Source: an uncultured Chloroflexia bacterium (lineage in GTDB: Bacteria; Chloroflexota; Limnocylindria; Limnocylindrales; CSP1-4). Taken from it: a DNA stretch of 64,000 bases. Position 1 is the first letter of the stretch. Each line of letters opens with the position of its first letter. A program made the translations under genes and the position numbers. The notes below the pieces were generated by a model. The model saw nothing but the letters and a program-made list of their open reading frames with translations, searched no databases and had not been told where the DNA came from. The DNA lies in the NCBI GenBank assembly GCA_963711405.1, contig CAVQDZ010000001.1, positions 90,703 through 154,702 of the forward strand, written 5' to 3'. Positions 7,929 to 25,577 of the stretch are shown in pieces.

Positions 7929-8803
7929 TGGCCGTCGAAGATCATCCGGCGCGCATGGCGCGCATCGCGCGCGGCGCCGACGGTGCCGGACCGCTGCGCC
8001 GCCTGTACCGGGAATCGCGATTGCGGCGCCTGCTGCGCGTCGACTGGTCTCATCGCGGGCTCACCGCGAACGACGTCATGCTCGCCTCGTATCCGCGCTC
8101 GGGCAACGCGTGGCTGGCGTTTATCGTGCTCGAGATGACCGGACGCGGTGCCGGCTTCGACACGGTCCGCTTCGACGCTCCGATCGTCGGCGCGCACTCC
8201 GACGCACCCGCGCTGGTGCCCGGCGGCGGCCGCTTCATCAAGACCCACGAGCCGTACGTGCCGGCATATCGACGCGCCATCCATCTTGTGCGCGACCCGC
8301 GCGACGTGGCGCTGTCCTATTTCCGCTTCATGCAGCGCGCCGGCGAGCTCGTGCTGCAGCCGACAGACGATCGGGCGGCGACCTTCGACCGCTATCTCGA
8401 CGCCTTCCTGGCCGGCCGGCTCCATCCCCACGGGACCTGGCAGGAGCATCTCGACTCGTGGCTCGCCGCGCAGGCTGACGGCCGCGCGGACGTCCTCAGA
8501 CTTCGCTACGAGGACATGCGCAGCGACGCGCCGGCGCACGTGGCCCGGATCGGTGCGTGGCTCGGACTCGACCTGTCGTCCGACCAGGCCACCGATGTGG
8601 CCGCCCGCTGCTCTCTCGAGCAGATGCGCGAGAAGGAGCTCGCCTCCGATCCGAGCGTCTTCGGGCGAGTGCGGCCGGAGATCGCGTATGTCGGCGACGC
8701 CCACGTTGGAGGCTGGCACGACGCACTGACCCACGATCAGCAGCAGCGCTTCGCTCGCTTCGCCGACGGGCTGGCGCAGATGGGCTACGAGCCTGCGATC
8801 TGA
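7928..8803 (+). CDS. PAPS-dependent sulfotransferase domain protein
   Basis: 5'-PSB loop SYPRSGNAW, IKTH, 3'-PB motif VRDPRDVALSY, LRYEDM. Confidence 0.88.
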   Translation: MAVEDHPARMARIARGADGAGPLRRLYRESRLRRLLRVDWSHRGLTANDVMLASYPRSGNAWLAFIVLEMTGRGAGFDTVRFDAPIVGAHSDAPALVPGGGRFIKTHEPYVPAYRRAIHLVRDPRDVALSYFRFMQRAGELVLQPTDDRAATFDRYLDAFLAGRLHPHGTWQEHLDSWLAAQADGRADVLRLRYEDMRSDAPAHVARIGAWLGLDLSSDQATDVAARCSLEQMREKELASDPSVFGRVRPEIAYVGDAHVGGWHDALTHDQQQRFARFADGLAQMGYEPAI

Positions 8804-8887
8804 GGCACGTTTGAGGCGCTCCGCCGGAGTACCAATACCAAAGGTCCGGATCGACGGGCGCGCGCGCAGCCGCGATGCTCACCATCA

Positions 8888-10180: not shown

Positions 10181-11124
10181 CGTCCTCCGAACCAGAGGCT
10201 GACAAGGTCGCGCCCGATGAGCGCGCCCGTTGCCTCCACATCGGGCCGCAGCTCGGCTTCCAGCTGTGCGCGTAGCTGTGCCGGAATAGGGCTGCGCTTG
10301 ACCTGGCGTCGGTTCATTCGGCTGTGCCGGAAGCGGTACGCCGCGCGGTCGCGGCGGGATTCACCGAGCACTATCCGCGCGACATCGTCGGTCACGAAAG
10401 TGCCCGCGCGACTGTCGAGCATGCGCCGCACCCAAACGCGCTGGCGGTGACTGGGGTTGCGTGCCGCAAGCGATTCGGGCTGGTAGTCCGGATCGACGTC
10501 CAGGAACGAGAGCGCCGCGCGCAGCGCTGCGGCGGGGTCGGCCGCGAAGTCGTCGAAGACGATGACGTGGACGCGATCCCGGCTGAGGGCGTCGAACCAG
10601 CGCCGCAATGGCTCGGCGAACAGCGCGCTCTCGCGGTAGACGGTGCCCAGAACGTTGGCAGCGCCGGGCAGCAGCTTGCCGTGCGCGCGCTCAGCGTCCG
10701 CGGCCATTGCCTGCGCGAAGTCGGTGAACTGCTCGTGACCCTGGGACACGCGTTCGTTGTGCAGCGCGTGGAGGAGCTCGACCGGATTGCGCAGCATTGC
10801 GATCGCGTACGCGTCGGGCTGGAACTCGTGCACCAGCCGGGCTGCCTCATGCGAGACGAGATAGCGCGTCGTGGCCTCGCCCAGGCGCGTCTCGTCGCGC
10901 GCATCGTCAAAAAGCGCCAGGTAACGCGCCGCGTCGCGCTCGTAAACGAACGGCTGGTCACCCCGCCAGCCGCGCACATCAGGGCAGAAATACATGGGCT
11001 CCTTGAACGGCGACATGTAGATCCGGGGATGACCGGCGAGCAACTCGTAGAGCGAGGTCGTGCCCGCCTTGGGCGCCCCGACGATGAACAGGTCGGGCCT
11101 GGCTGGGGCCTGGGCATTGGTCAC
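10177..11124 (-). CDS. Sulfotransferase family protein
   Basis: FIVGAPKAGTTSLY, KEPMYF, GEATTRY, MLRNPV motifs. Confidence 0.88.
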   Translation of the reverse strand: MTNAQAPARPDLFIVGAPKAGTTSLYELLAGHPRIYMSPFKEPMYFCPDVRGWRGDQPFVYERDAARYLALFDDARDETRLGEATTRYLVSHEAARLVHEFQPDAYAIAMLRNPVELLHALHNERVSQGHEQFTDFAQAMAADAERAHGKLLPGAANVLGTVYRESALFAEPLRRWFDALSRDRVHVIVFDDFAADPAAALRAALSFLDVDPDYQPESLAARNPSHRQRVWVRRMLDSRAGTFVTDDVARIVLGESRRDRAAYRFRHSRMNRRQVKRSPIPAQLRAQLEAELRPDVEATGALIGRDLVSLWFGGR

Positions 11125-11139
11125 GCGTAGGGACGGAAG

Positions 11140-12468
11140 TCAGTTCGCGCTGCGGCCGAGGACAATGACGTTCATGCCCGCGCTCGCCGCCGCCTGCGCG
11201 TCAGCGACGCGCCGAGAGTCGACCAAAACGCGTCCGGGCATACTCGCCACAAGCGATGTCCAGTCGAGCGTGTGGTACTCCGGCCACTCAGTCGCGATGA
11301 CCAGACCGTCTGCCGCGCGAGATGCCGCCACGACAGTGGGACACACTTCGAGGGTGAAGCCGCTTCGATCTGCCGCCTTCGCGGCAGCCTGACCGCCCAT
11401 CGGGTCGTGGCCGGCGACAGTCGCGCCGCGTGCCGCCAGGGCGTAGCAGATGCGCAGCGAAGGAGATTCGCGGACATCGTCGGTGCCGGCCTTGAAAGTC
11501 AGCCCCAGGACGCAGATGCGCTTGCCGTTGAGATCACCGACTGCCCGCTCAAGGCTGTCAACGACCCACCCCGCCTGCAACCCGTTGGAGCCGTCGATTG
11601 CGTCGATGATCGGCGTCGCGACCCCGTGCTCATGGGCAAGCGCCGGCAGCGAGCGCGCCTGAGACGGCAGGCACGACCCTCCAAAGCCCGGCCCCGGCGT
11701 CATGTACGAGCGCCCGATGCGTCGGTCGAGACCGATGCCGTCGACAACTGTCGCCACGTCGGCACCGGTCGCCGCCGACAGGCGCGCCAATTCGTTGGCG
11801 AAGCCGGCCTTCATAGCCAGGAACGCATTGGAGCCGACCTTGATCATCTCCGCGCTGGTCGCATCGGTCACGACGAGCGGGGCACGCACACGGCGGTAGA
11901 CACTGCGCAGCAGGGGCAGGGCACTCGACTCGTGTTCGGGTCGCGTGAGGCCAACGACTACGCGGTCGGGATTCAGGAAGTCGTCGATGGCCGAGCCCTG
12001 GCGCGTGAACTCCGGATGGTGCGCCAGCTCGACGTCCGCGTCGCGATCGCTGGCCAGCTTCGCCAGCCGCGCCGTGGCGCCGGGCATCAGCGTGCTGCGC
12101 ACGATCAGCGTGCGCGGCGCGGCCTGGTCTTCAGCCAGGCCACTGACGGCGCGCTTGACCGCGCGCGCGCTCCAGTCGCCGCGCTCGTCGAGTGTGCCGA
12201 CACAGATAAACACCGCCGTGGCGTCGCGCGCCGCGGCCATAGACGTGGCGAAGGTAAGTCGGCCGGCGTCCACGGCATCGCGCACGGCCTCGTCGAGGCC
12301 GGGCTCGAAGAACGGCAGGCGGCCGGCATTGATGCCGTCGATGCGCGCTTCGTCGTTGTCGACGCAACGAACCGACCAGCCAAGCGTGGACAGGCATGCC
12401 GCGGTGACGAGGCCCACGTAGCCCGCGCCCAGAACGGCGAGCTTCAGCTCGTTCTCTTCGTCAGCCAC
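11140..12468 (-). CDS. ugd: UDP-glucose/GDP-mannose dehydrogenase family
   Basis: GAGYVG Rossmann motif, PEF.RQG, AEMIK..SNAFLAMK, GFGGSCLP catalytic Cys, GLTFKAGTDDVRESP. Start GTG 12468. Confidence 0.9.
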   Translation of the reverse strand: MADEENELKLAVLGAGYVGLVTAACLSTLGWSVRCVDNDEARIDGINAGRLPFFEPGLDEAVRDAVDAGRLTFATSMAAARDATAVFICVGTLDERGDWSARAVKRAVSGLAEDQAAPRTLIVRSTLMPGATARLAKLASDRDADVELAHHPEFTRQGSAIDDFLNPDRVVVGLTRPEHESSALPLLRSVYRRVRAPLVVTDATSAEMIKVGSNAFLAMKAGFANELARLSAATGADVATVVDGIGLDRRIGRSYMTPGPGFGGSCLPSQARSLPALAHEHGVATPIIDAIDGSNGLQAGWVVDSLERAVGDLNGKRICVLGLTFKAGTDDVRESPSLRICYALAARGATVAGHDPMGGQAAAKAADRSGFTLEVCPTVVAASRAADGLVIATEWPEYHTLDWTSLVASMPGRVLVDSRRVADAQAAASAGMNVIVLGRSAN

Positions 12469-12504
12469 GGGCGAAGCATACGAGCGCCCATTAGGCTGCG
12501 GTAA

Positions 12505-14431
12505 ATGAGTCCCGGACGCAGGTCTGCCCCGCCGCGCCCCAAGCGCATCGACGTCCCGACACGATCGGAGACGGACTCCGTCACGCCCGAGCTTGATGAG
12601 GAGATCGAGCTCGACCCGGATCAGCCGCCGTACGAGACGCGGCCGAGTGCGTCGCGCGGCGACGACGTGCCTCTCTTGGGCAACGACGAGCTGGCGCGCA
12701 TCTTCTACGAGATCGGCGACATGCTCGAGATCGCGGGCGAGCTGCCGTTCAAGATTGGCGCTTATCGCCGTGCAGCCGAGTCGATCGCGCACTCGCCCCA
12801 GGACGTTGCCCGCGCCTACCGGCTGCGTACGCCGCCGCGGCTGCCCGGCGTCGGCAAGGCCATCGACGAGAAGCTCGCCGAGCTGGCCGATACGGGCCGA
12901 TTGCGCTACTACGAACGGCTGCGGCGCGACGTGCCGCCGTCGGTGGTCACGCTGCTCCAGGTGCCCGGGTTGGGCCCGCGCACGGCTGGTGAGCTGTGGC
13001 GCCAGGGCGGCATCGATTCGCTCGATGCCCTGGAGGCGGCCGCGCGCGCCGGCGAGCTTCGCAATCTGAAGGGCATGAGCGCAAAGACTGAGGAGCGGCT
13101 GCTCGATGGGCTAAAGACGCTGCGCGCGCGGCCGCCGCAGCGCATCCGCCTGGGCACGGCGCAGGACATCGTCGATCGCGTGGTCGGCTCGCTCGAGCTC
13201 GCCGCCGGCGTCACGTCGGTGACCGCGGCTGGGTCGTATCGCCGGCGCCGCGAGACCATCGCCGACATCGATGTCTTGGTCGAGACCACGGATCCGGCCG
13301 CGGTCATCACCAAGCTGCACGACTCGCCATGGGTGGAACGAGTCGGCGGCCACGGCGGCCGGCCCGGTGGCGGCTCGCGCACGACCGTGCAGCATGACCC
13401 GCGGTCCGCAGATCGACCTGATGACTATGCCCGTCGGCGCCGCGGGGACGTATCTCGTCCACTTCACAGGCTCCGCGGCGCACAACGTCCGGCTGCGCGA
13501 GATGGCTCGCGACCGCGGCTGGTCGCTCTCCGAGCACGGCTTCACCGCGCTCGACGACGAGACCCGCCGCGTCACCTTCGAGACGGAGGCGGAGGTATAC
13601 GACTTCCTTGGCCTGCCGTTCATGGCACCGGAGCTGCGCGAGGACCGCGGCGAGATCGAGGCGGCGCTCGCGGGCACGCTTCCCAATCTCGTCACGCGCG
13701 CCGACCTGCAGGGCGACTGCCACACGCATTCCGACTGGTCGGACGGGCACTTCTCCATCGAGCGCATGACCGAGGCGGCACGCGAACACGGATTGCGCTT
13801 CCAGGTGCTGACCGACCACACCCAGAGCCTGACCATCGCCAACGGCCTGACGCCGGCGCGCGTGGAGCAGGAGCGCCGCGTCATCGGCGAGCTGAACGAA
13901 TCGTTCGCCAGGGAGGGGATCGACTTCCGCCTGCTTCACGGCTGCGAGCTGGAGATCCGTGTCGACGGCATGCTCGATTACGACGACGCCCTGCTCGCGC
14001 GCTTCGACGTCGTCGTCTGCTCGCTCCATGTCGGTCGGCGCCAGCCGCGCGCGCAGCTCATGGCCCGCTACCGGACTGCGCTGCGCAACCCGAACGTGGA
14101 CATCATTGCCCACCCGTCGGGGCGCAAGATCGGCCTCCGCGACGACCTGGACCTGGACTGGGATGCGTTCTATCGAGAAGCGGCACAGACGCGCACCGTG
14201 CTCGAGCTGAACGGCTCCGACGAGCGGCTAGACCTGGACGACCGGCGCGCCCGCGCCGCCCACGAGGCGGGCAATCGCTTCGTGGTCGACTCGGACGCGC
14301 ACTACGTGCACGAGTTCATCAACCTCGACTGGGGCGCGGCGCAGGCGCGCCGGGCGTGGCTCGAGCCGGCCGACGTCCTCAACACGTTTCCCGTCGACGA
14401 CTTCCTGGCCGAAGTCACGGACCATCAATGA
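12505..14431 (+). CDS. polX: DNA polymerase X / PHP 3'-5' exonuclease, frameshifted at ~13393
   Basis: HhH motifs (LPGVGKAI, VPGLGP), AGSYRR, ADIDVL catalytic Asp pair. Then in another frame QIDL, HFTGSAAHN and a PHP domain (HTHSDWSDG, TDH, AHP, DSDAH). Confidence 0.9.
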
Positions 14432-15837
14432 GCGCCGCTGATGTCGGCCTGCCTTCCACGTTCGACAGTCGAGCTCGGCAGCTGGCAGCGCGCGTCAGCG
14501 CGACACCACTCATCCCGGTCATCGTCGCGGTCGTGCTCGGCACGATCGGCATCGGCGACAAGAGCATCTGGGTCGACGAGGGCATCGCGTTTGCCATGGC
14601 CCGAATGCCGATTCGGGCGATGCTTGACTACATTGCTCGTCAGGAGCTCGTGGCGTCGCCCTACTTCCTTGCCCTCAAGCCGTGGCTGGCGCTGGGCGAG
14701 TCGGAGGCCGCCATCAGGTTGCTTGCCGTCGTCTTCGGTGCGCTCGCCGTTGTGGGGACATGGCTCGTCGCCAAGCGCTACGGAGTTGCCTTCAGGGCAG
14801 CCCTGCTGATGGCTGTGCTGCCGACGCTCGTGGTCTACATGCAACAGGTCAAGGGCTATACCTTGATCGCTGCCGTCAGCGCGTTTTCCACCTGGCTGGT
14901 GCTGCGCCTGATCGACCGACCCTCGCCGTGGCGCGCCATCGCCTATGTCGGCTCGGCGATCCTGATCGCATATGTCAATCCCCTCGCCGCGCTGATCCCG
15001 ATCGCACACATCGGCTTTGTGTTCGCCACCGCCGCCCACGGCGATCGGCGCCGTCTGTTGCTGTTGTTCGTCCCGATCTTCATCGGCTGGATCCCGGTGG
15101 TGGTGTTTGCCATCCGGTCAGGAGATAAGTGGGCGTGGATCCCTCCCGCGACGCCTGATGTCGTGGCGTCCGAGCTGGTTGCCCTCGGTGGCGGCCTTCT
15201 CGTTGCGATAGTCCTCGGCGTTGCGCTGCTTTTCGGAATTCGACGCGACGTCATGGCCCTTTGGCTGCTCGTGCCGCTCGCAGGTGCGCTCTTGGCGTCC
15301 GTTCTGATCGAGCCGGTATTTCGTCACGCATACCTGATTGGCGTGCTCCCGGCCGCGGCGATCATCGCCGCGCGCGCGCCGCGTGTGGTCGTCGCCACTC
15401 TGATCGTCGTTGCCCTGGTCGCCAACGTGAGCTGGTACCAGGCGCCGTCGAGCGAAGACTGGCGCGGAGCGGCCGGCTACCTTGCCGCCCAGGTGCAGGA
15501 CGGCGACGGCCTCGTCTTTGCGCCGGCCTACGTTCGTCCTGCGTTCGGCTACTACGCCCGGATCGGCGAGCCGCTGCTGCCGTCGATGCCGTGGTCTGCC
15601 TCAGACGTCCCCTACTCCGCGGCTCCGAACGACAACGCGCTCAGGGTGGCCGCGCGCATCTGGCTGATCAAGTCCGATCAGCACTACCCGACCGTGCCTG
15701 ACAACGTCGCGGCAGAGATTGCTCGCCGGCCCGTTTTGTCGGAGCGGGACTTCGGCGGCGAGATCCGGGTCATCCTCCTTGGCCCTGATGCGAGCGGTGA
15801 TCGTGCGGCGACCGCTGCTACGCTGGCCGGCCAATGA
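14428..15837 (+). CDS. GT39/PMT-like (GT-C) polytopic membrane glycosyltransferase
   Basis: 3' part of the 1110-aa ORF from ATG 14428 (ATGA overlap): SIWVDEG, SPYF..LKPW, EAAIRL, many TMs, EDWRGAA. Confidence 0.8.
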   Translation: MSAADVGLPSTFDSRARQLAARVSATPLIPVIVAVVLGTIGIGDKSIWVDEGIAFAMARMPIRAMLDYIARQELVASPYFLALKPWLALGESEAAIRLLAVVFGALAVVGTWLVAKRYGVAFRAALLMAVLPTLVVYMQQVKGYTLIAAVSAFSTWLVLRLIDRPSPWRAIAYVGSAILIAYVNPLAALIPIAHIGFVFATAAHGDRRRLLLLFVPIFIGWIPVVVFAIRSGDKWAWIPPATPDVVASELVALGGGLLVAIVLGVALLFGIRRDVMALWLLVPLAGALLASVLIEPVFRHAYLIGVLPAAAIIAARAPRVVVATLIVVALVANVSWYQAPSSEDWRGAAGYLAAQVQDGDGLVFAPAYVRPAFGYYARIGEPLLPSMPWSASDVPYSAAPNDNALRVAARIWLIKSDQHYPTVPDNVAAEIARRPVLSERDFGGEIRVILLGPDASGDRAATAATLAGQ

Positions 15838-17510
15838 GCTACCTGCGGCTGTACCACCAGTCGACCCGCCAGGTCGCGCTCGCCGTGTTCAGCGGCGTGC
15901 TCCAGTCGATCGTGCTCATCCCGATCATCTTCCTGATCCGGATCGCGTTCGACACCTTGATCCCAGGTCGTGACCTGACCGGCCTGGTGCTCGTCGGCGT
16001 GCTGATGACGGTGCTGTACATCGTCAGTGGCGGGCTGTTGTTGTGGAGCCGCGCAGCGGCCCTCGACGGGACGCGGCGCGCGATCGATTCGATGCGCATG
16101 GATCTCGTGGCGAAGATCCAGGGACTGCCGCGCGAGCGCCTGGTCAGTGACGAGGCGTCGCACGTGCACAGCCTGCTGGTCTACGACACGGAGCGGGTCA
16201 GCTCCGCGAGCAACGCCCTCGTCGGTCAGCTGCTGCCCGCGGCCGTGTTCTCGATCGCGCTCGGCCTGGCCCTGCTGTACATGAACTTGCTGCTGTTCCT
16301 GACCGTCCTGGCCGTCGTGCCGATACTGACCGTCGCGATGCGCTTCATCGGCCGTCGCGCGTCGCAGCGCATTGCCGTCGGTCGGAACACCTTCGAGCGC
16401 TTCAGCAGCGGCGTCCTCTTCCTGGTCGAGCGCATGGACCTGACGCGCAGCCAATCCGCTGAGGCCGTCGAGCGCTCGCGTCAGGAGCGCAACATCAAGG
16501 AGCTGGGCCAGGCCACCGCGAGCATGGGTGCGTGGTCCGCGGCGCACACCGTCGCCCAGGAAACGGTGACGTCCGTCTCCTGGTCGCTGATCCTGATCAT
16601 CGGCGGCATCGCCGTCGCCGGCGGGGCGATGAGCGTGGGCGACGTGCTCGCCTTCTCCGTCGCCGCGATGATGCTCAAGCGCTCGGTCAATTCGCTTGTC
16701 GGCGCGGTGCCCACGATCCTCGAGGGCGGCTCGTCGATGGCAGCCATCCAGGCGCTCAGCGCCGAAGCGGACGACGACGCCTACCGGGGTGAGCGCCCGG
16801 GCACGCTCGAGCGACAGCTGACCATGACCGGCGTGACGTTCAGCTTTGGCGTGGAGCCACTGCTTGATCGACTCGACCTGCAGCTGTCTGCCGGCGACGT
16901 GGCCGTGATCAGCGGCCCGAGTGGCGCGGGCAAGACGACGCTGCTGCACCTCGTGCTGGGCTACTACCGACCGAGCGCGGGCACGATCGCCGCGGACGGA
17001 ATCGCGTATGACGAGCTCGACCTGCCGGCCTTGCGCAAGCAGATGGGCTTCGTCGCCCAGGATCCGGTCGTGTTCGCCGGGACGCTGCTCGAGAACTTGA
17101 CCTACGGCACCACCGATATCGATCACGACCGCCTCAACGAGGCCTGTGCGCTGGCCGGCGTGGACGAGTTCGTCAAGCGCCTCAGCGACGGCTATGACAC
17201 GACGGTGGGTGAGGGCGGGGCGCTGCTCTCCGGTGGCCAGCGCCAACGGATCGGGCTGGCCCGCGCTCTGTACCGTCGCCCGGCTGTGCTGCTGCTCGAC
17301 GAGCCCACCAGCCAGCTCGACGAGCGCCTCGCCGTGCGCCTCGTCGAGAGCCTGCGCGCGCTGCCGTGGCGGCCGGCGCTGCTCATCGTCAGCCACGAGC
17401 TGGGCCGCGTGGCGGCACATGCGGACGCGGTCTACGAGCTGAGCGGCGGCCGCCTGCACGAGCGCACTGATCGCGCCACGGACGACCTCCTGAGCGCAGC
17501 CGTCGCTTGA
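15834..17510 (+). CDS. ABC exporter, fused permease/ATP-binding
   Basis: N-terminal TM domain, Walker A GPSGAGKTT, LSGGQRQR, LLLDEPTS. No C39 peptidase domain. Confidence 0.93.
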   Translation: MSYLRLYHQSTRQVALAVFSGVLQSIVLIPIIFLIRIAFDTLIPGRDLTGLVLVGVLMTVLYIVSGGLLLWSRAAALDGTRRAIDSMRMDLVAKIQGLPRERLVSDEASHVHSLLVYDTERVSSASNALVGQLLPAAVFSIALGLALLYMNLLLFLTVLAVVPILTVAMRFIGRRASQRIAVGRNTFERFSSGVLFLVERMDLTRSQSAEAVERSRQERNIKELGQATASMGAWSAAHTVAQETVTSVSWSLILIIGGIAVAGGAMSVGDVLAFSVAAMMLKRSVNSLVGAVPTILEGGSSMAAIQALSAEADDDAYRGERPGTLERQLTMTGVTFSFGVEPLLDRLDLQLSAGDVAVISGPSGAGKTTLLHLVLGYYRPSAGTIAADGIAYDELDLPALRKQMGFVAQDPVVFAGTLLENLTYGTTDIDHDRLNEACALAGVDEFVKRLSDGYDTTVGEGGALLSGGQRQRIGLARALYRRPAVLLLDEPTSQLDERLAVRLVESLRALPWRPALLIVSHELGRVAAHADAVYELSGGRLHERTDRATDDLLSAAVA

Positions 17511-18649
17511 GAGCTTCCCGCCAGCAGGCGCTGCTGCTGCGCGCTGCGCTCGTGTCTGGCGACGCGGGCCTGGCCGCGTGGCATGGCTGGCGGCGTGCCG
17601 CGGACCTCGACGAGATAGACCGTGGCTCGGCGCGTCTGCTGCCGTTGCTGTGGTTCAACCTGCTGGCCAACGAGGTCGACGACCCGTGGATGCCACGCTT
17701 CAAAGGCATCTATCGCCACACCTGGTTTGGCAACCAGGTGTGGATGCGCAACGTGCGCGAGGTGCAGGCATTGCTGGCTGTTCACGGCGTCGAGCCGCTG
17801 TTTCTCAAGGGCATCGCGCTGGCCAACGTGTACTACTCGAATCCGGGCTTGCGGCCAATGGACGATCTGGACATCCTGATCGCGCCCGAACAGGTTCCAT
17901 CCGCGCTGGACGCCCTGGCGGCCGGAGGTTGGCGATGCATCGTCGAGCGGCCCACGATGGTCCTGCGCACGGTCCACGCGGTCGAGCTGCTGTCTGCCGA
18001 TCAGCACAACCTCGATGTCCACGCCCATCTGCTCCAGGGCAGCCTGAACTCCGATGTCGACGCCCGGCGTCGGGCGCGCGCAACAACCGTCCAGCTTGCC
18101 GACGGCCCGCTGACGGTGCTCGATCCGACCGATCAGCTGCTCCACGTCCTGGTCCACGGTGTGGAGTCGGATCCGCCCGCGCCGCGCTGGCTCGCCGACG
18201 CGCTGATCGTCATGCGTCGTGAACCTGCCATCGACTGGCGCCGACTGGCGGCCGACGCCGGCGCCGAGAGCCGCTCGCTGGCCGTGGCCCGCGCGCTCGC
18301 TGAGCTGGTCGAGGTCTTCGGCCGCGACAACGTGCCGGTTCCTGCCTATGTGCTCGACGCGTACCGCGACAGGCTCCGATCGTCAGCGCAGGCTCGTTTC
18401 GAGCAGCGCGTCGCCTCTGGTCCACGTGTACCCGTCGTTGGCTATGCGCTCCAACGCACGGTGGACTATCGACGCTGGCGACGCAGCGGAAACGGTGACC
18501 CCGAGCGAAGCGCCGGTTTCGACGCCTATCTGCGCCTCAACTGGGGCGTCGAGAGTCGGCGTGACCTGGTCGTGCAGGCCTCACGCCGCGGCACGCGGAC
18601 GGCACTGGCGGATCTGCGGGCCGCATCGCTCAAGCTGCGCCCGGAGTGA
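17507..18649 (+). CDS. Nucleotidyltransferase family protein (NTP_transf_5-like)
   Basis: LFLKGIALA..Y...GLRPMDDLDILI, LDVH, LLHVLVHG, RWLADA signature. Confidence 0.85.
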   Translation: MRASRQQALLLRAALVSGDAGLAAWHGWRRAADLDEIDRGSARLLPLLWFNLLANEVDDPWMPRFKGIYRHTWFGNQVWMRNVREVQALLAVHGVEPLFLKGIALANVYYSNPGLRPMDDLDILIAPEQVPSALDALAAGGWRCIVERPTMVLRTVHAVELLSADQHNLDVHAHLLQGSLNSDVDARRRARATTVQLADGPLTVLDPTDQLLHVLVHGVESDPPAPRWLADALIVMRREPAIDWRRLAADAGAESRSLAVARALAELVEVFGRDNVPVPAYVLDAYRDRLRSSAQARFEQRVASGPRVPVVGYALQRTVDYRRWRRSGNGDPERSAGFDAYLRLNWGVESRRDLVVQASRRGTRTALADLRAASLKLRPE

Positions 18650-19785
18650 CAAGCGCGGTGGTCGTTGACGCCAAGTGGCCGCGGCCGGCGTCCGACGCAG
18701 CCTCCCAGCGCACGCTCCAGATCGTCAATGAGCTCGATCACCTGGGTTTCGACGTTCACCTCGCAGCCCTCTTCCCGACCGAGGCCGGCGGCGAGGCCGG
18801 CATACCCATCGAGCTGGGGGCCGCGCGGCGTGTTCCCGTGGCAGGCGGCTCCGCGCTGATCGACTATCTGGCCCAGCACGTCGCCGACTTTGATCTGGCG
18901 CTGGTGTGCTGGACGCGGACCGCGCAGGCTGTCCTGGGACCTCTTCGAACTGCAGATCGTGATCTGCCGCTGTGCTTTGACACGCAGGATGTCAACCACG
19001 TTCGCGAGTACCGACACGCGCGGGTGACGGGCAATGCCAATCTGCTCCGGCGCGCGCTGGCGATGAAGGCGGCGGAGCTCGGCGCCGTGGCCGCCGCGGA
19101 CCTGACCCTGGCGATCAGCGAGGCTGACGCGGCGACGCTGCGCGCCGGCGCGCCGGATGCCCGCATCGAAGTCGTGACGATGTCCGTTGACCGGCGCGCC
19201 TCTGCGGTGCCCGGGCCGGACGGTCGGCGTGGCGCGGTCTACCTGGGCAATTACATGGCCTGGCACAACGTCGATGCGGCGACGTACCTGTGTCGCGAGA
19301 TCGTGCCCGCCCTCGATGCGCTGAATTCGACCCTGCCCGTGGCGCTCGCCGGCGCCGGCCGTCACGAGCTGATCGACCAGCTCGCCTCCGACAGAGTGCA
19401 AGTCGTCGGCTATGTCGACGATCTCGTGGCGCTGTTCGACAGCCGGCGCATGTTCGTGGCGCCGTTGCGCGTCGGCTCGGGCGTGAAAGGCAAGCTGCTC
19501 GCCGCGTTAGCGGCCGGGCTGCCCGTGATCGCGACACACATCGCGGCGGAGGGGGTGCCGCTCGTCGACGGGCGCAGCGCGCTGCTCGCGGATACACCTG
19601 AGGCCTTTGCGGCCGCATGCGCGCGGCTCGAGCACGACGACGACATGTGGCGAACTTTGTCCGAGGGCGGTCGCGCGGTCGTGGCCGAACACTTCAGCCC
19701 GGCGGTGGTGCGCGACCAGGTTCGAACCGTGTTCGAGCCGCTCCTCGAGGGCCGTGCTGGACGAGGCGCGCGGAGCGCTGGGTAA
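18646..19785 (+). CDS. Glycosyltransferase family 4
   Basis: DTQDVNH, YLGNY..HNVDA, FVAPLRVGSGVKGKLLAALAAGLPVIAT. Confidence 0.88.
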   Translation: MTSAVVVDAKWPRPASDAASQRTLQIVNELDHLGFDVHLAALFPTEAGGEAGIPIELGAARRVPVAGGSALIDYLAQHVADFDLALVCWTRTAQAVLGPLRTADRDLPLCFDTQDVNHVREYRHARVTGNANLLRRALAMKAAELGAVAAADLTLAISEADAATLRAGAPDARIEVVTMSVDRRASAVPGPDGRRGAVYLGNYMAWHNVDAATYLCREIVPALDALNSTLPVALAGAGRHELIDQLASDRVQVVGYVDDLVALFDSRRMFVAPLRVGSGVKGKLLAALAAGLPVIATHIAAEGVPLVDGRSALLADTPEAFAAACARLEHDDDMWRTLSEGGRAVVAEHFSPAVVRDQVRTVFEPLLEGRAGRGARSAG

Positions 19786-19821
19786 ACTGCGCCAGCACTG
19801 CTGCCGCCAAGGGGGACGAGC

Positions 19822-20288
19822 GTGACCAGCCCGGACGCGCGCCGCTATCGACAGCGCGGCGCTCCGATCATCCACGACACGATCGACAACGAGACGATCG
19901 CCATAAACCAGCTCACCGGCGCGTATTACTCGCTCGAGGGAGCGAGTGCGCTGGCGTGGGAGCGCCTGGCTGCGGGTGCCACCGCGCTGGAGATCGGTGA
20001 TGCTCCTGTGCGCGGCCTACGAGGCGGATCGTGCCGCGATCGATCAGGCCGTCAACGAGTTCGTTGGCCGAGCTGCTCGACGAGGCATTGATCGTCGCCG
20101 TGGACAGCGACCAGGCTGGTGGTGCCGCGGCGGTCGTGCCACAAGCTCCGTCCACAGGCTCGCGCGCACCGTTCAGCGGCCTTCGTCTGCAGCGCTACAA
20201 CGATCTCGAGGTGATGCTCCTGGCCGACCCGATCCACGAGGTGGACGACACCGGCTGGCCCATGCCCGTCGCCGACGCTGGCAAATGA
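19822..20288 (+). CDS. PqqD-family / RiPP recognition element protein with C-terminal DPIHEVD-GWP tail; two +1 frameshifts (~20005, ~20066)
   Basis: Three frames join: MTSPDARRYRQRGAPIIHDTIDNETIAINQLTGAYYSLEGASALAWERLAAGATALEIGDA / LCAAYEADRAAIDQAVNEFV / AELLDEALIVAV..FSGLRLQRYNDLEVMLLADPIHEVDDTGWPMPVADAGK. Three-strand plus three-helix PqqD pattern (YYSL...A..W..L; F+..L....LI). Confidence 0.8.
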
Positions 20289-21376
20289 CGGCGGTTCGGC
20301 TGATTGCCGCCGCCCATGATGCGTTCGCCGAGGCGCGTCGTTCGGCCGTCTCGCGCGATATCGACGGCTGGCTGGCCGGGAGGCCGGTCAGGTTTGAGTT
20401 CGCGGGCGACTTCTTCGAGCGGCAGCTGAGCCGCGCGCTGGCCATCGATCCACAGCCGGCGGCATCCACGCCGTCGACGGCCGGGGCCGCAGCGGCCCTC
20501 GCGCTGCATGCGTGGGACGCGGCCTCGACCGGTGTGCGGCTGGCCTCCGAATCGTGGGCCGGCCTGATGATCAACTCGTCGAGCGTGATCGAGGACCTGT
20601 CCGACGAGCGCTACCAGGTCAGCCTGGAGCTGCGCGGCGCCTTGGCATCCATCCTGGACCGCGATACGGGCGAGGCCTATCACTACGTGCCTGATCCGGA
20701 CAGGCTGCCGGCGTGGGAGACGACGCACCCCGCGCGCGTGCTGCTCGCCGCGTGGGCGCGCGCCCAGGGTCTGATCACGTGCCACGCCGCGGCCGTGGCC
20801 GACGAAACGGCCGGTCTATTGCTGTGCGGCGGCAGTGGCGCTGGTAAATCGACGACGACGCTCGCGTGTCTGGCGGCCGGGATGCGTTCGGCCGGTGACG
20901 ACTACGTGCTGGTCGAGCCGGGCGCTCCGCCCATCGTTCACGCGTTGTACCGCTCGACGCTGCTCGAGATCGACAACTACACCCGACATCAGCGCCTGAT
21001 GCCCGCTGTCGATCACGTCGCGGATCAGCTCGACCGGCGCAAGGCGGTCATGTTCGCGGCCGGAGCGGACCGGCCGCTGATCTCAGGCGGCTTTCCGATC
21101 GCTGGCATGGTCGCGCTGCATGTCGAGAAGGGCAGCCAGCCCGCGTATCGACGAACGAGCGGGGCGGCCGCGCTGCGCGCCCTTGCACCAAGCACGCTGT
21201 CCCAGTTGGGCATGGTCAATTCCGCGGGCCTGGCCCGCCTCGCGGACCTGTGTCGCTCGCTGCCCGCCTTCGAGCTCAGGCTGGGCGACGATCCCGCGCC
21301 TGTGCCCGACATCCTGCGCGGCGTGATCCGCGACGCCCTTCACGACACGACGCTGGCAGTGCCCGCGCATGCCTGA
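20285..21376 (+). CDS. HPr kinase-related P-loop serine/threonine kinase
   Basis: CHAAAVA, Walker A GGSGAGKSTTT, GDDYVLV. ATG 20285 overlaps the PqqD stop. Confidence 0.82.
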   Translation: MTAVRLIAAAHDAFAEARRSAVSRDIDGWLAGRPVRFEFAGDFFERQLSRALAIDPQPAASTPSTAGAAAALALHAWDAASTGVRLASESWAGLMINSSSVIEDLSDERYQVSLELRGALASILDRDTGEAYHYVPDPDRLPAWETTHPARVLLAAWARAQGLITCHAAAVADETAGLLLCGGSGAGKSTTTLACLAAGMRSAGDDYVLVEPGAPPIVHALYRSTLLEIDNYTRHQRLMPAVDHVADQLDRRKAVMFAAGADRPLISGGFPIAGMVALHVEKGSQPAYRRTSGAAALRALAPSTLSQLGMVNSAGLARLADLCRSLPAFELRLGDDPAPVPDILRGVIRDALHDTTLAVPAHA

Positions 21377-22064
21377 CGCCTCGCCCAGCATCGGCGTGGT
21401 CATTCCTGCACGCGACGCTGGCCGTTACATCGCCCAGACGATCGAGAGCGTCCTCGCGCAGACAGTCAGCCCGACCGAGATCATCCTCGTCGATGACGGC
21501 TCGACCGATGACACCGTAACCATCGCGCGGGCCTTTGGCGAGCGCATCCGGATCGAACGTCAGCCGCCGACCGGCCCGGCCGCCGCGCGCAACCTGGGCA
21601 TCAGCGCGACCTCGTCCGAGCTGGTGGGGCTGCTGGACGCGGATGACATATGGCCGACCAACAGCCTCGAGCTCCGCCTCGCTGGACTTCGGGCCGACGA
21701 GGACGCCGACCTGTGCTTCGGCCACATGATCCAGTTCGCAAGCCCTGACCTGCCGATCGAAGAACAAAGCCGGCTGCACGTCGATCCCGCGCCGCAGCCC
21801 GCGCTGAGCTCGACGGCCATGCTTGCCAGGCGAACGGTTTTCGATCGAGTGGGGCTATTTCCTGATCGGCGCGCCGGCGACTTTCTCGAGTGGCTCATCC
21901 GCGCGCGCACGGAGGGCGTGCGCTGGGTCATGCTCGGCGACGTCGTTCTCCGCCGGCGGCTGCACCTGCACAACCTGTCGCGCCGCGAGCCGGAGGCCAA
22001 CGCCCATTACCTGGCCGTCGTGCGCGCCGAGCTGGCCCGCCGCCGGCTCGCGGGCGAGGCGTGA
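21369..22064 (+). CDS. Glycosyltransferase family 2
   Basis: VVIPA, IILVDDGSTD, ARNLG, LLDADD. Confidence 0.92.
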   Translation: MPDASPSIGVVIPARDAGRYIAQTIESVLAQTVSPTEIILVDDGSTDDTVTIARAFGERIRIERQPPTGPAAARNLGISATSSELVGLLDADDIWPTNSLELRLAGLRADEDADLCFGHMIQFASPDLPIEEQSRLHVDPAPQPALSSTAMLARRTVFDRVGLFPDRRAGDFLEWLIRARTEGVRWVMLGDVVLRRRLHLHNLSRREPEANAHYLAVVRAELARRRLAGEA

Positions 22065-22078: not shown

Positions 22079-22591
22079 ATGACCGACGAAGTCGCCAAGA
22101 TCCAGATCCGGCCCATCGTCGAGGCCGACGAAGCTATCGTCGACCGGCTCTGGCAGCTGTACATCCACGACCTGTCCGAGTCGCGCCACTCGCTGCCCAA
22201 CGAGCACGGCCTGTTCAAGTTGGGCCACCTGGCCGACTTCCGCGCCCGGCCCGATGAGTGGCCCGGTTTCCTGGTCACGTATGGCGGCACTCCGGCCGGC
22301 TTCGCGTTCGTCGGCCTGCGCTGGCAGGGGGACAAACGCACGATCGGTGAGTTCTTCGTCGTCCGTGGCGCGCGACGCCATGGCGTGGGCCGACACGTAG
22401 CGCGCGCCTTGATCGGACGCTATCGGGGCTCATGGGAGATCGCCTTCCAGGACAACAATCCAGGTGCGCCCGATTTCTGGAAAGGCGTGGTAGCGGACAT
22501 CACCGGCGCCGACTGGCGTGAGGAGTGGCGGCCGGTGCCTGACAAGCCGCACATCGCGCCCGATCACTGGCTGATGTTCAGCGTGTCCTAG
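22079..22591 (+). CDS. GNAT family N-acetyltransferase
   Basis: EFFVVRGARRHGVGR acetyl-CoA motif, N..A.DFW. AAGGAGG SD before ATG 22079. Confidence 0.85.
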   Translation: MTDEVAKIQIRPIVEADEAIVDRLWQLYIHDLSESRHSLPNEHGLFKLGHLADFRARPDEWPGFLVTYGGTPAGFAFVGLRWQGDKRTIGEFFVVRGARRHGVGRHVARALIGRYRGSWEIAFQDNNPGAPDFWKGVVADITGADWREEWRPVPDKPHIAPDHWLMFSVS

Positions 22592-23025: not shown

Positions 23026-24315
23026 TCATGACGAGAACGAAGTAACGACGAGGACGACCGACATCACAACGAGCATCAGTGTCACGCCCCAGCCCAGGAT
23101 CAGGTTGATGCGGCCGCTGACGAGATTGCCCATGATCTTGCGATCGCCAACCAGGAGCATCACGAATACGAGGATGACCGGCAGCAGCAGGCCGTTGAAC
23201 ACCTGGGCACTGAACATGACCTGGATCAGCGGCAGGCCCGGGATGAGCATGAACAGGGCGGCAAAGACGATGAAGAAGACAAGCAGCCCGTAGAAGGCGG
23301 GTGCCTCACGGAAGCGCCACTCGACGCCCTGCTCCCAGCCGAACACTTCCGCGGCCGTGTAGGCACTAGAGAGCGGAACCACCCCCAGGCCCAGCAGCGA
23401 AGCGGCGACGAGGCCGATGGCAAAGAGAACGGCCGCGACGTTTCCGGCGATCGGCTCGAGCGCCTGCGCCGCGTCAGCGGCGCTACTGATGTTGAAGATG
23501 CCGGTGGCCCACAGCGTGGCGGCACAGGCGACGAGGATGAACGCGGCGATGACGTTCGTGATGAACACGCCAATCAGGACGTCGATACGCTCGGCGCTCA
23601 TGTCCTCGGGCCGCAGGCGCTTGTCGACGACATAGGCCTGGATGAACTGCTGTCCCCACGGGGTGATGGTGGTGCCCACGACACCGACCACGGCGAGCAT
23701 GTACACGCCGTTGAAGGTGCCTGAGGGCACGATCAGGCTGTGCAGCGCCAGGCCCCAGTCCGGGTTGGCCAGGATCGCCGACACGATGTATGCGCCGGAG
23801 ACGAGCACGCCGACCGCGACAAAAAAGTACTGGACGCGGTTGAAGCTGCCCGCGCCGATGAGCGTAATGACCGCGATCGCAGCGACGACCGCGGAGATTG
23901 GTGCCGGCACTCCAAAGATCGACAGCGCCGCACCGATTCCGGCGAACTCCGAGACGGTCGTGCCCAGGTTGGCGGCGAGCATCGTCACGGTGGCGAAAGC
24001 TGCCCAGCGGATGCCGAACCGCTCGCGAATCAAGCCAACGAGGCCTTTGCCCGTAGCGAGTCCCATTCGTGCGCCGATCTCCTGGGTGATGAGCAGCGCG
24101 ACCTGGGTCACGAGAATCAGCCACAACAGCTGGTAGCCGAACTTCGCCCCGGCAATCGAGTAGGTCGTGATGCCGCCGGCGTCGTTGTCGGCGAAGCCGC
24201 TGACGATGCCCGGGCCGAGCACCGCCATCGTGGCTACAAATCGGGCACGGCGGCCCAAGCGCCGGCGCGGCGCCATAGGCGCGGCAGGATTGACCGGCCG
24301 AGCCGCGGCGCTCAT
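23026..24315 (-). CDS. NRAMP-family divalent cation transporter (NrmT/Mg-type clade)
   Basis: GPGIV..ADNDAGGITTYS, GTTITPW, about 11 TMs. Confidence 0.88.
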   Translation of the reverse strand: MSAAARPVNPAAPMAPRRRLGRRARFVATMAVLGPGIVSGFADNDAGGITTYSIAGAKFGYQLLWLILVTQVALLITQEIGARMGLATGKGLVGLIRERFGIRWAAFATVTMLAANLGTTVSEFAGIGAALSIFGVPAPISAVVAAIAVITLIGAGSFNRVQYFFVAVGVLVSGAYIVSAILANPDWGLALHSLIVPSGTFNGVYMLAVVGVVGTTITPWGQQFIQAYVVDKRLRPEDMSAERIDVLIGVFITNVIAAFILVACAATLWATGIFNISSAADAAQALEPIAGNVAAVLFAIGLVAASLLGLGVVPLSSAYTAAEVFGWEQGVEWRFREAPAFYGLLVFFIVFAALFMLIPGLPLIQVMFSAQVFNGLLLPVILVFVMLLVGDRKIMGNLVSGRINLILGWGVTLMLVVMSVVLVVTSFSS

Positions 24316-25577
24316 CGCACGGGGCGTGAAGGACGACGTGGCTGCCAGCGGCGGCTGGCTTCTGGCGCCACGGCATCGAGCGCGTCGTCAACAGTGACAA
24401 TGCCCTCGAGGTGCCCGGCGTCATCGACTACGGGCACGGCCAACAGGTTGTAGCGCGCGATTACGCCCGCGACGTGATCCTGGTCGTCGAGTACACGAAC
24501 GGTGATCGGCTCCTTGATCATCACCTCGCTGACGACAGTCTCCGGCTTGGCCACGATCAGGTCGCGCAACGAAAGCACGCCGACGAGGGCATTCTCCGGC
24601 CCAACGACGTAGACGTAGTAGATCGTCTCCGCGTCGGGCTCCAGCTCGCGCAGCCGGTCGATCGCCTGGGCTGCGGTGAGGTTCGCCGGCAGAGCGACAT
24701 ACTCGGTGGTCATGATCCCGCCGGCCGACTCCTCCGGGTAGCCCAGCAGCTCCTGTACCTCCTCTGCCTCGTCCTTCTCCATCAGGGCGAGGATCTCCTC
24801 GCGCGCGGTCTCTGACAGGTCGGCGACCAGGTCGGCCGCGTCGTCGGGGCTCATCTCCTCGAGGATGTCCGCTGCGCGATCCGGCTCGAGGTCCTCGAGC
24901 ACCTCGACCTGTGTCTCCGGCTCCATCTCCTCGATCGCATCCGCGACCTGCTCGTCGTCAAGCGAGGCGAGCACGCCGGCACGATCGCGTGGCGTGAGCT
25001 GGTCGATGATCGAGGCGAGATCCGACGGGTGCAGCGAGGCGAGACCTGCATGGGGCACGCGCAGGCGCACCGCCGCAATCGACGTCTCGAGTGGATCGAC
25101 GTCCTCCCAGTCGATGAAGCGCTCGCGCACACGCAGGTTCAGGTTGCGTGCAAGCGTCCTATACGGACCCTCAAGGCCAAAGCGACGCAGGATGCCGGCT
25201 GCGCCGACGTCGACCGCGACGAGACGAAACGAACCGGTCACGACGTCGAGGCTCACGTCGTTGACGCGCACCACGCGCCGGCCGTCGATATCGACGATCT
25301 GCTTGTCCATCAAATCGGCCTTGAGCAGGATCTCGTTCGGCCGCTGACTGAACTTGTTGATGTCCAGCGTCGACGTCTTGAGGCGCGCGCCACTCATGTC
25401 CAACGACGCGACAGACGACCAGGGCAGGAAGATCTGGCGCGCGTCGGTCTTGATGACCAGACCGGTCACGGGCGGATAGCGCTCGCCAACCGCCACGATC
25501 AGGTCCGCGACCTTGCCCATCGGGTCCCCGTTCATGTCGCGAACGGGTCTGCCGATGACTTGACTCAGGTAGAGCAT
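24312..25577 (-). CDS. MgtE-like cytosolic protein (PRC barrel + MgtE_N + CBS pair, no TM domain)
   Basis: PRC-like N-terminus, LHPSDLA, MSPDDAADL, YPEESAGGIMT, IYYVYVV, GIVTVDD. The ORF ends before the MgtE membrane domain. Confidence 0.88.
   Translation of the reverse strand: MLYLSQVIGRPVRDMNGDPMGKVADLIVAVGERYPPVTGLVIKTDARQIFLPWSSVASLDMSGARLKTSTLDINKFSQRPNEILLKADLMDKQIVDIDGRRVVRVNDVSLDVVTGSFRLVAVDVGAAGILRRFGLEGPYRTLARNLNLRVRERFIDWEDVDPLETSIAAVRLRVPHAGLASLHPSDLASIIDQLTPRDRAGVLASLDDEQVADAIEEMEPETQVEVLEDLEPDRAADILEEMSPDDAADLVADLSETAREEILALMEKDEAEEVQELLGYPEESAGGIMTTEYVALPANLTAAQAIDRLRELEPDAETIYYVYVVGPENALVGVLSLRDLIVAKPETVVSEVMIKEPITVRVLDDQDHVAGVIARYNLLAVPVVDDAGHLEGIVTVDDALDAVAPEASRRWQPRRPSRPVR

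Follow-up and report, generated by a model that had tools for sequence, protein, structure and literature searches.

HprK-like kinases and PF14907 enzymes were reportedly first seen as decorations of lasso peptides. Both also occur, together with a recognition protein of unusual architecture, on a 64,000-nucleotide (nt) stretch of DNA from an uncultured Chloroflexia bacterium (GenBank assembly GCA_963711405.1, contig CAVQDZ010000001.1, positions 90,703 to 154,702 of the forward strand), hereafter the window. On its plus strand lies a cassette that encodes an ATP-binding cassette (ABC) exporter, an NTP_transf_5 nucleotidyltransferase-fold enzyme (NTase), glycosyltransferases (GTs) of the GT4 and GT2 types, an HprK/ScmC-like kinase and, directly upstream of the kinase, the protein at issue here. 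[quoted passage not shown] The best reading of the data is that the cassette is a widespread and self-contained module that works without a lasso cyclase, a leader protease or a free-standing precursor.

Among known systems, the linear polyphosphorylated peptide (LPP) cluster of Bacillota, LppA/K/B/S/D/N, comes closest; for it the comparison below draws on excerpts of a single paper (Popov 2026, PMC13381572). As these excerpts describe them, LPP clusters lack a cyclase, are often embedded in capsule loci, and are linked to lasso genes in about one third of cases; their precursors bear the signature YxxPxVLxHQxIxFETxxS and are polyphosphorylated on core Ser3, and the authors describe both LPPs and paeninodins as confined to Bacillota. 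The likeness to the present cassette is considerable. Both are cyclase-less, both are often found at polysaccharide loci, both feature a recognition motif of the [Y/W]xxP type, and the HprK-like kinase, NTP transferase, MsbA-like exporter and discrete RRE of the LPP clusters all recur in the window. There are differences as well. LPP clusters encode a leader peptidase and a free precursor, whereas the cassette has neither; its leader-like motif, along with an invariant DPxH..GWP element, sits on the RRE protein itself. In addition, a GT2 gene is almost always present, the cassette occurs outside Bacillota, and its RRE profile scores higher with the lasso proteins TbiB1 and PbaB1 than with LppB. 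Cyclase-less clusters of an RRE together with an HprK-like kinase, NTP transferase and MsbA-like exporter in capsule loci are thus already known as a kind, and the cassette looks like an undescribed cousin of the Bacillota LPP systems. The distinct pathway proposed in the initial annotation of the window accordingly survives as a variant without peptidase or precursor, but not as a new kind. Full-text literature searches, which covered neither subscription journals nor the supplementary cluster lists of PMC13381572, returned no paper describing an RRE-tail cassette, and PMC13381572 was the only one of the searched full texts to contain the term “HprK-like.”

A second group of relatives accompanies lasso peptides proper. 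HprK-like kinases, PF14907 enzymes, sulfotransferases and ABC exporters are companions of paeninodin-type lasso clusters, according to excerpts of two reports (PMC6993621, PMC8498205), in agreement with the tailoring-kit background from which the initial annotation started. In pseudomycoidin, the kinase PsmK, with its metal site at D158/D159, places one to three phosphates on the C-terminal Ser, and PsmN (D134/D136) is needed for the addition of one or two hexoses to the phosphate (PMC6993621, PMC8498205). Since this studied relative of the NTase is needed for hexose addition onto a phosphate, the earlier term “nucleotidylated” for the product finds no backing in these excerpts. Shared with the paeninodin and pseudomycoidin clusters are the B1-type RRE, the HprK-like kinase with its P-loop and DD site, the PF14907 enzyme with a DxD motif, and the ABC exporter. 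Unlike them, the cassette has no lasso cyclase, B2 protease or precursor gene, its RRE protein is extended to 125–216 residues by the tail, and it possesses dedicated GT2 and GT4 genes.

Three further systems pair similar components. In the HPr-rel-A system (HprK_rel_A, TIGR04352, with PqqD_rel_X, TIGR04353) and in HprK_rel_B (TIGR04355), a PqqD-family chaperone stands beside an HprK-related kinase, as it does here, and these models are the best NCBIfam matches of the cassette kinase and RRE. The window kinase reaches 27.6 bits with TIGR04352 and 31.4 bits with TIGR04355, and its homologues reach 21.6–31.6 bits, against a cut-off of 200; the RRE reaches 17.7–23.7 bits against 35. With scores so far under the cut-offs, the cassette constitutes a separate family. 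The SynChlorMet system (HprK-like ScmC, PqqD-like ScmD) also has a PqqD-like partner, and many cassette kinase homologues carry the Pfam family PF27840 (named ScmC, Pfam 38.1). SynChlorMet, however, employs radical SAM partners, which the cassette core lacks, and the NCBIfam ScmC model gives 16.3 bits against a cut-off of 125. Finally, cofactor RRE systems such as those for PQQ and mycofactocin, the latter with the GT2 enzyme MftF, have in place of a hypervariable core a peptide end that is strongly conserved. The cassette likewise presents an RRE together with such an end, except that here the conserved stretch is fused to the RRE and no radical SAM enzyme or peptidase is present. The window GT2 itself matches the MftF model at E 4.4e-16 and 58.8 bits, under the cut-off of 280.

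A recurrent cassette and its RRE-tail protein

A pattern scan over one genome per species, based on a 12-row kinase alignment, yielded 214 stretches, among them 101 confirmed kinase relatives; the counts below refer to the best 80 loci. These represent at least 10 phyla, with hosts in Chloroflexota, Actinomycetota, Acidobacteriota, Pseudomonadota, Myxococcota, Gemmatimonadota, Bacteroidota, Verrucomicrobiota, Cyanobacteriota, Planctomycetota, Rokubacteria and Abditibacteriota, and include the cultured strains Aestuariivirga litoralis KCTC 52945 and Ohtaekwangia koreensis DSM 25262. Counts of neighboring genes, obtained by tblastn with the window proteins at E<=1e-3, are lower bounds. An RRE gene lies directly upstream of the kinase in 68 of the 80 loci and carries the tail in 67; a GT2 gene on the kinase strand within 8 kb is found in 77, and an NTase homologue in 59. 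Homologues of the window's GT4 are present in 10 loci, other loci carry different GT4 or GT2 genes, and a PMT_2 homologue occurs near the kinase in only 3. Restricting the count to the 56 loci with full flanks gives 49 with the RRE, 54 with GT2, 43 with the NTase and 21 with the ABC exporter. Because the arrangement recurs in 80 loci, it is far beyond chance.

Pfam scans of 21 of these loci, in two sets (13 loci with 123 open reading frames (ORFs) at E<=1e-4, and 8 loci with 82 ORFs of at least 150 residues at E<=1e-12), recover the RRE and the kinase, between one and three genes of the GT2/GT4 types, NTP_transf_5 and, in some loci, the ABC exporter. A radical SAM gene is near the cassette in one of the 21 (L034) and is not part of the conserved core. 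Flanking genes vary from genome to genome, hem genes, RF3 and glycoside hydrolases among them. Since the flanks differ in this way, the module is self-contained and independent of the polysaccharide locus near which it lies in the window. A Verrucomicrobia locus (L032:9475-12505) puts the kinase family to another use: its kinase homologue is accompanied by Ser/Thr protein kinases and a low-molecular-weight phosphotyrosine phosphatase, and both RRE and GT2 are absent.

The element that sets the cassette apart is the RRE-tail protein. Single ORFs of 120–230 residues were available from 57 of the 66 loci with a tail match upstream of the kinase, the other 9 being dropped for length, and the intact homologues measure 125–216 residues. 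Each is composed of a lasso-B1-like RRE, a variable, low-complexity linker and the tail, whose consensus is [FYW]xxPx[LVF]xx[YF][TS]Dx7DP[IV]Hx5-7GWP followed by a median of 7–8 variable residues. The tail starts as a lasso-leader-like motif; in the form [YWF]xxPx[LVIFAM], this motif occurs at a fixed distance in 36 of the 57 intact proteins. In an alignment of 50 sequences with a mean column identity of 24%, no variation is seen at G37 and Y39 of the RRE or at D149, P150, H152, G158, W159 and P160 of the tail. DPxH..GWP is read here as the functional end of a protein that works with the kinase. In the window, the RRE-tail gene occupies 19822..20288 on the plus strand and is spread over three frames by two +1 frameshifts (discussed below); its tail motif, from the F of FSGLRL to GWP, spans 20172..20261 (+) in frame C and consists of the leader-like segment followed by D-x7-DPIH-x5-GWP.

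The family extends well beyond the 80 loci. A profile search of 1.84 billion representatives recovered RRE-tail proteins in 1659 clusters at E<=1e-30 and in 5809 at E<=1e-10. Among the best 128 single-unit representatives, a set biased towards the consensus, D-x7-DP[IVL]H-x5-7-GWP is retained in 126 and the full motif in 123. The family is also one that existing libraries describe only in part. Intact homologues match PqqD at E 1e-9 to 1e-13; NCBIfam models match only their PqqD part, and no library model describes the tail. The frame-C piece of the window gene matches no Pfam family at E up to 10. Within the source genome, a hidden Markov model of the tail run against the six-frame translation detects only the window's copy, the next matches having E above 1.

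A further architecture is provided by 19 representatives of at least 260 residues (P0082-P0098, P0106 and P0210 in the representative library), which contain two or three RRE units in tandem and are in some cases fused to a kinase. A leader-like motif typically follows about 81 residues after each RRE, but no protein has more than one DPxH..GWP element: 15 have a single copy and 4 have none. In 5 of the 19 the chain ends in a kinase with a P-loop; residues 534–780 of P0082, for instance, are 33% identical to the window kinase (E 4e-36). A word-based search for longer fused relatives of the RRE-tail protein of L012, a related locus, had found none among 1904 candidates; it was the exhaustive profile search that found the fusions.

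Structure prediction reinforces the likeness to lasso B1 proteins. The AlphaFold2 (AF2) model of the 168-residue L012 protein, with a predicted local distance difference test (pLDDT) score of 84.4, shows an RRE fold, which superposes by Foldseek on the TbiB1–leader complex (5v1v) with a template modeling (TM) score of 0.88 and a root-mean-square deviation (rmsd) of 1.1 Å. The family profile matches TbiB1 at E 5.3e-18, PbaB1 (9x90) at 1e-13, TfuB1 at 5.5e-9 and LppB (9x8z) at 4.5e-7. Judged by fold and profile, the intact homologue is a B1-type RRE, as the initial annotation had anticipated for the window; the window's own copy is split by its frameshifts. Along the L012 chain, confidence falls to a pLDDT of 58–65 in the linker, rises to 95 over the leader-like residues 131–140, where residues 136–139 form a strand, and drops again to 65–70 in the DPIH..GWP end. 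This pattern suggests that the leader-like strand may cap its own RRE in cis.

The kinase partner and the modified substrate

The kinase gene (20285..21376, plus strand) starts at ATG 20285 and encodes 363 residues. It carries the hallmarks of HPr kinase/phosphorylase (HPrK/P), namely a Walker A motif of the GxSGxGKS type, an upstream His and a DD metal site. In 29 aligned sequences, H167, G182, G185, G187, K188, S189, T190 and D206 of the GDDY motif are invariant, with D205 nearly so, and the Walker A motif reads G182xxGxGKST190. The family profile matches the HPrK/P structure 1jb1 at E 1.1e-7, and the Hpr_kinase_C model gives 17.9–18.4 bits, under its cut-off of 33.3. The AF2 model has a pLDDT of 89.3, and the gene is single-copy in the source genome. 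The NTase likewise retains its metal-binding DxD motif: K101, G102, R116 and D170 are invariant and D120xD122 nearly so among 10 aligned sequences.

That the RRE-tail protein forms a complex with the kinase is inferred from the naturally fused proteins, from the conserved overlap of the two genes and from a co-folding prediction of weak support. Co-folding of the L012 kinase with the L012 RRE-tail protein scored 0.44 (runs of 0.44, 0.45 and 0.31), compared with 0.00 for the best of three controls; the runs share at least 46% of contacts, and the partner pLDDT is at least 67. Of 80 solved complexes, 58 attain the mark used, as do 2 of 110 mismatched pairs; with a score of 0.60 or under, only 7 of the 80 solved complexes attain it, together with both passing mismatches. 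These benchmark counts hold only roughly for a prediction made with its own alignments. The result is counted as mild support only, because the fusions and the conserved overlapping genes had already made binding likely.

A mechanism can be proposed on this basis. The lasso-B1-like RRE would bind its own leader-like segment, [FYW]xxPx[LVF], in cis, and this docking would hold D-x7-DP[IV]H-x5-7-GWP out to the kinase complexed with the RRE-tail protein. The kinase would then phosphorylate a residue of the RRE-tail protein, and NTP_transf_5 and the glycosyltransferases would build sugars on the phosphate, by analogy with PsmK and PsmN acting on pseudomycoidin. Lineage-specific steps could be added by the exporter, by PMT_2 and GNAT, and perhaps also by the sulfotransferases and the UDP-glucose dehydrogenase (UGDH) encoded nearby. 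In outline, then, the putative sequence is cis-docking, tail presentation, phosphorylation, glycosylation dependent on the NTase and GTs, and export. That the cassette carries out a phospho-glyco modification of a ribosomal product, centered on the RRE-tail protein, seems on balance probable, the chemistry being modeled on that of characterized relatives. A more specific version, which we put forward tentatively, is that RRE-tail proteins are self-presenting RiPP-like precursors, with recognition domain, leader-like strand and invariant “core” on one chain, loaded onto the kinase and phospho-glycosylated by NTP_transf_5, GT2 and GT4. If so, the product would be either a phosphoglycan-bearing protein, as when glycan assembly is primed by a protein, or, once released, a conserved glycoconjugate of peptide origin.

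Several observations weigh against a modified RRE-tail protein as the center of the pathway. The acceptor is the weakest link, for none of the invariant positions of the tail is a Ser, Thr or Tyr. The position before the invariant Asp is T or S in 107 of the 123 full-motif representatives, D or E in 11, and N in the window and L012. In the window and its closest relatives, moreover, Leu replaces Pro in the leader-like segment (FSGLRL in the window). The proposed cis-docking derives from pLDDT and secondary structure only, with contacts not readable, and the co-folding, itself weak support, comes with no reported interface. As for the enzymes, the HPrK/P likeness of the kinase is confined to the P-loop core, and over its whole length the fold is closest to phosphoenolpyruvate (PEP) carboxykinases (E 7e-10; TMq 0.55), which are small-molecule enzymes; LppN, the counterpart of the NTase, was inactive in a heterologous host, and the final LPP product is not known, according to the excerpts of PMC13381572. 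At the level of gene content, an NTase homologue is missed in 21 of the 80 loci, only 28 have an ABC homologue at 8 kb or less from the kinase, and the kinase homologue of L032 stands in an unrelated context.

Two candidate acceptors can be set aside. A T or S before the invariant Asp is not a universal acceptor, since 16 of 123 representatives have D, E, N or some other residue there, and the window has N. Nor is a C-terminal Ser, as in paeninodin, since Ser is the last residue in only 4 of the 57 intact proteins.

The strongest competitor is that the kinase has a non-peptide substrate, namely a small molecule, sugar or lipid-linked glycan belonging to the neighboring polysaccharide pathway, and that the RRE-tail protein would regulate or scaffold the kinase as its adaptor. 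The resemblance of the kinase model to two-domain PEP carboxykinases extends over about 400 columns, and a tail that offers no invariant hydroxyl residue, and whose invariant Asp, Pro, His and Gly-Trp-Pro would suit a docking motif, is what an adaptor might display. The window cassette is moreover surrounded by GT2, GT4, PMT_2, UGDH and sulfotransferase genes, and in another locus (L017) a single ORF joins Sulfotransfer_3 to NTP_transf_5. Against a non-peptide substrate stands the closeness of the RRE to lasso B1 proteins, whose only known role is the binding of leader peptides. In addition, every studied HprK-like kinase beside such an RRE (PadeK, PsmK and LppK), as far as the published excerpts go, phosphorylates a peptide Ser, and elsewhere the cassette sits among unrelated genes (hem genes, RF3, glycoside hydrolases) rather than in a polysaccharide pathway. 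We consider this alternative rather unlikely, if the one most deserving of attention.

The broken RRE gene and the missing lasso genes

A different question is whether the module is still active in the source organism, given that its RRE gene is broken. The gene runs in one frame from 19822 to about 19990, in a second from about 19991 to 20062, and in a third from about 20055 to 20288, with the tail in this last frame C. PqqD profile positions 1–28 fall in frame A (the frame of 19822) and positions 38–66 in frame B, both matches staying under the 23.4-bit cut-off. When the gene is aligned with its intact counterparts in the relatives L012 and L014, two single extra bases stand out, 52 nt apart, and its three pieces align in order to residues 5–61, 66–84 and 85–166 of the intact L012 protein. 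An 89-residue ORF at 19822-20091 is therefore not the whole RRE gene; it is only the first frame of the broken one.

Codon-level comparison indicates how old the breaks may be. Synonymous to non-synonymous codon differences number 17:14, 4:9 and 14:30 in the three RRE pieces, compared with 96:108, 108:148 and 109:131 in the intact neighboring kinase, GT4 and NTase genes. As the conservation of the pieces resembles that of the intact neighbors, the breaks are recent or artefactual. The source genome is a metagenome-assembled genome (MAG) of 10 contigs and 83.7% completeness, in which rpoB and rpoC are present twice (contig C6, 28763-36570; contig C7, 20020-27821); the bin therefore contains a nearly duplicated pair of stretches. 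Of the two rpoC copies, that of C6 is broken across two frames and that of C7 is whole, in one open frame of 1679 residues. The duplication and the split copy suggest redundancy and indel errors in the assembly. Among relatives, L014 has frame breaks in the NTase, GT4 and kinase genes, and in L012 the PolX gene, which precedes the cassette there too, is split among at least four frames.

The two RRE frameshifts are probably assembly indels. The alternative is that the insertions are real and the cassette is decaying in the source organism, so that the module would be inactive or rewired here and functional elsewhere in the family. Decay would fit two insertions within 52 nt of one small gene, and the neighboring PolX gene is frame-broken as well, in the window and in L012. 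Public reads speak for neither side: six public soil runs contain small shares of the words that cover the frameshift sites, no contig assembled from four public runs spans 19963-20268, and the sites are thus without coverage by independent reads. Set against this are the codon-level conservation kept by all three pieces on a par with intact neighbors, the open and overlapping state of the operon's other eight genes, the frame-split copy in the same assembly of rpoC, an essential gene, and a completeness of 83.7% in only 10 contigs, which fits an assembly with indel errors. Decay is on this evidence unlikely.

The lasso and LPP processing genes are, by all searches made, missing. In the source genome, 83.7% complete, there is no match to the lasso cyclase family PF00733 (Asn_synthase) or to the B2 protease family PF13471 (Transglut_core3), and no further PqqD match; the whole-genome check that the initial annotation had proposed for its cyclase-less cassette thus came out in its favor, within that completeness. 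Asn_synthase, Transglut_core3 and S24/S26 peptidases are likewise absent from the 205 ORFs of the 21 Pfam-scanned loci, so that synteny without a cyclase holds in 21 of 21. No SpI-like (SipW-type) leader peptidase was found in the operon or in those 21 loci; the sole match in the source genome to TIGR02228, an archaeal-type signal peptidase, is on contig C8 (137522-137953, minus strand). A free-standing precursor with a YxxPxL leader and a core is absent from the operon, whose only gap, of 36 nt, leaves no room for one, and no separate precursor of 35–200 residues bearing YxxPxVLxHQxIxFETxxS was found, the sole leader-like motif being the one inside the RRE protein. Among 943 ORFs of 25–130 residues from the 80 loci there is no conserved small ORF family, a test that a hypervariable precursor would escape; the clusters that did form are low-complexity sequences, frame-broken or short copies of the RRE-tail gene, and some groups limited to three close Bacteroidota relatives.

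An orphan tailoring kit serving a lasso or LPP peptide, with cyclase or peptidase and precursor elsewhere in the genome, is accordingly very improbable: the genome is only 83.7% complete and an Abditibacteriota carrier has two Transglut_core3 genes (about 76 kb from its cassette, the only instance over the cut-off among five other carrier genomes), but the other four carriers have none above it, the source genome has neither Asn_synthase nor Transglut_core3 and just one kinase and one tail copy, no conserved small ORF accompanies the 80 loci, and the RRE appears to carry its own leader-like segment.

The operon, its surroundings and its significance

In the window, the cassette is part of a translationally coupled nine-gene operon on the plus strand: PolX, PMT_2, ABC exporter, NTP_transf_5, GT4, PqqD/RRE, HprK/ScmC-like kinase, GT2 and GNAT. 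The G+C content of the region is about 68%, so that long spurious ORFs are abundant, and gene calls were settled by frame analysis of third-position G+C (GC3), Pfam, NCBIfam and inspection of junctions. Genes meet in overlaps of 4 or 8 nt (ATGA, TTGA, GTGA, ATGA and ATGCCTGA), and a single gap of 36 nt remains.

The core begins with an MsbA/bacteriocin-type ABC exporter of 558 residues (15834..17510, plus strand), which has membrane and nucleotide-binding domains (ABC_membrane at residues 15–281, ABC_tran at 344–493) and no peptidase domain; its top NCBIfam matches are MsbA, CydD and type I secretion, each below its cut-off. It is followed by the 380-residue NTP_transf_5 enzyme of the PsmN/LppN type (17507..18649, +; PF14907 at E 2.2e-33 and 116.3 bits against a Pfam cut-off of 31.2) and by the GT4 glycosyltransferase of 379 residues (18646..19785, +; Glyco_trans_1_4, E 2.1e-21). 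Next comes the RRE-tail gene, whose GTG start codon has AAGGGGGA upstream and whose stop codon overlaps the ATG of the kinase gene. A kinase start at 19946 was rejected in favor of 20285, which gives 363 residues, in line with the 350–375 of homologues. A small soluble GT2 glycosyltransferase of 231 residues completes the core (21369..22064, +; Glycos_transf_2, E 2.4e-28).

Accessory genes lie on either side. Upstream, the PMT_2 glycosyltransferase (14428..15837, +), a GT-C-fold enzyme of 469 residues resembling GT39 and GT83, starts at ATG 14428 and matches PF13231 with 29.6 bits against a cut-off of 26.1; an ATGA overlap couples it to the ABC exporter gene. Downstream, a GNAT acetyltransferase of 170 residues (22079..22591, +; Acetyltransf_1, E 3e-7) starts at ATG 22079 after AAAGGAGG; its homologue in L012 is placed between PolX and PMT_2. 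The first gene of the operon, for a PolX-type DNA polymerase (12505..14431, +), is context rather than cassette core. It occupies two frames with a break at about 13270–13300, where the GC3 frame also switches: HHH_8, HHH_5 and the palm are in the frame of 12505, thumb and PHP in that of 13271. The PolX stop overlaps the PMT_2 start at ATGA 14428. An ORF of 1110 residues at 12505-15837 was rejected as a single gene, as it is a run-on through the frameshifted PolX.

On this map, the six tightly packed or overlapping plus-strand genes of the initial annotation are borne out by Pfam and NCBIfam, all six families being present at about the positions given there. Its coupled GT39 gene exists as the ATGA-coupled PMT_2 gene (14428-15837), although the 1110-residue ORF to which it had been assigned is the PolX run-on. 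The RRE and kinase families were recognized correctly, from gene calls that need amending: the 89-residue RRE ORF is incomplete, and the kinase starts at 20285, not 19946. The frameshifts and the conserved tail of the RRE gene had gone unnoticed, and the cassette had been placed inside a polysaccharide locus. That locus, upstream in the first 12.5 kb of the window, adjoins the cassette and does not surround it, PolX lying in between.

The polysaccharide locus itself (window 1-12500) comprises exopolysaccharide genes for a Wzy_C polymerase/ligase-like protein, a Bac_transf initiating transferase, and GT4, GT2 and GT4 enzymes, together with two sulfotransferases (7925-8803, plus strand, and 10177-11124, minus strand), a GAF-GGDEF cyclase (8888-10180) and UGDH (11140 to about 12480, minus strand). 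This inventory suggests a sulfated, uronic-acid-containing polymer under cyclic di-GMP control. A comparable accessory set is found in an Acidimicrobiia MAG (L017), where an ORF of 757 residues (4468-6741, minus strand) fuses Sulfotransfer_3 (residues 55–259) to NTP_transf_5 (414–656) and adjoins GT4, RRE, kinase, GT2, UGDH, GNAT and ABC genes, the same accessories as in the window. By analogy with this locus, the adjacent sulfotransferases and UGDH of the window may feed the same product as the cassette.

Some features beyond the operon merit brief mention. On the minus strand, an Nramp transporter gene (23026-24315) comes after a gene (24312-25577) for a protein with PRC-barrel, MgtE_N and CBS domains and no MgtE membrane domain; in L012, a complete MgtE is found at the corresponding side of the cassette. 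Farther away, an acetate kinase ORF (43222-44292, minus strand) that lacks the first ~52 profile positions lies 39 nt from a phosphoketolase gene (44331-46679) and may be truncated or mis-assembled.

The cassette emerges as an LPP-like toolkit in soil and water bacteria of many phyla that follows a different logic, with no peptidase and no separate precursor. Its RRE-tail motif ranks with the best-conserved short motifs of RRE proteins, and the family that bears it combines large size and wide phylogenetic spread with an unusual architecture and can be tested in cultured strains, which makes it of interest to both the RiPP and glycobiology fields. If the RRE-tail protein is the substrate, it would be the first RRE to recognize itself and would offer a route to bacterial protein phosphoglycosylation; if it is instead an adaptor of the kinase, it would redefine what RREs can do.

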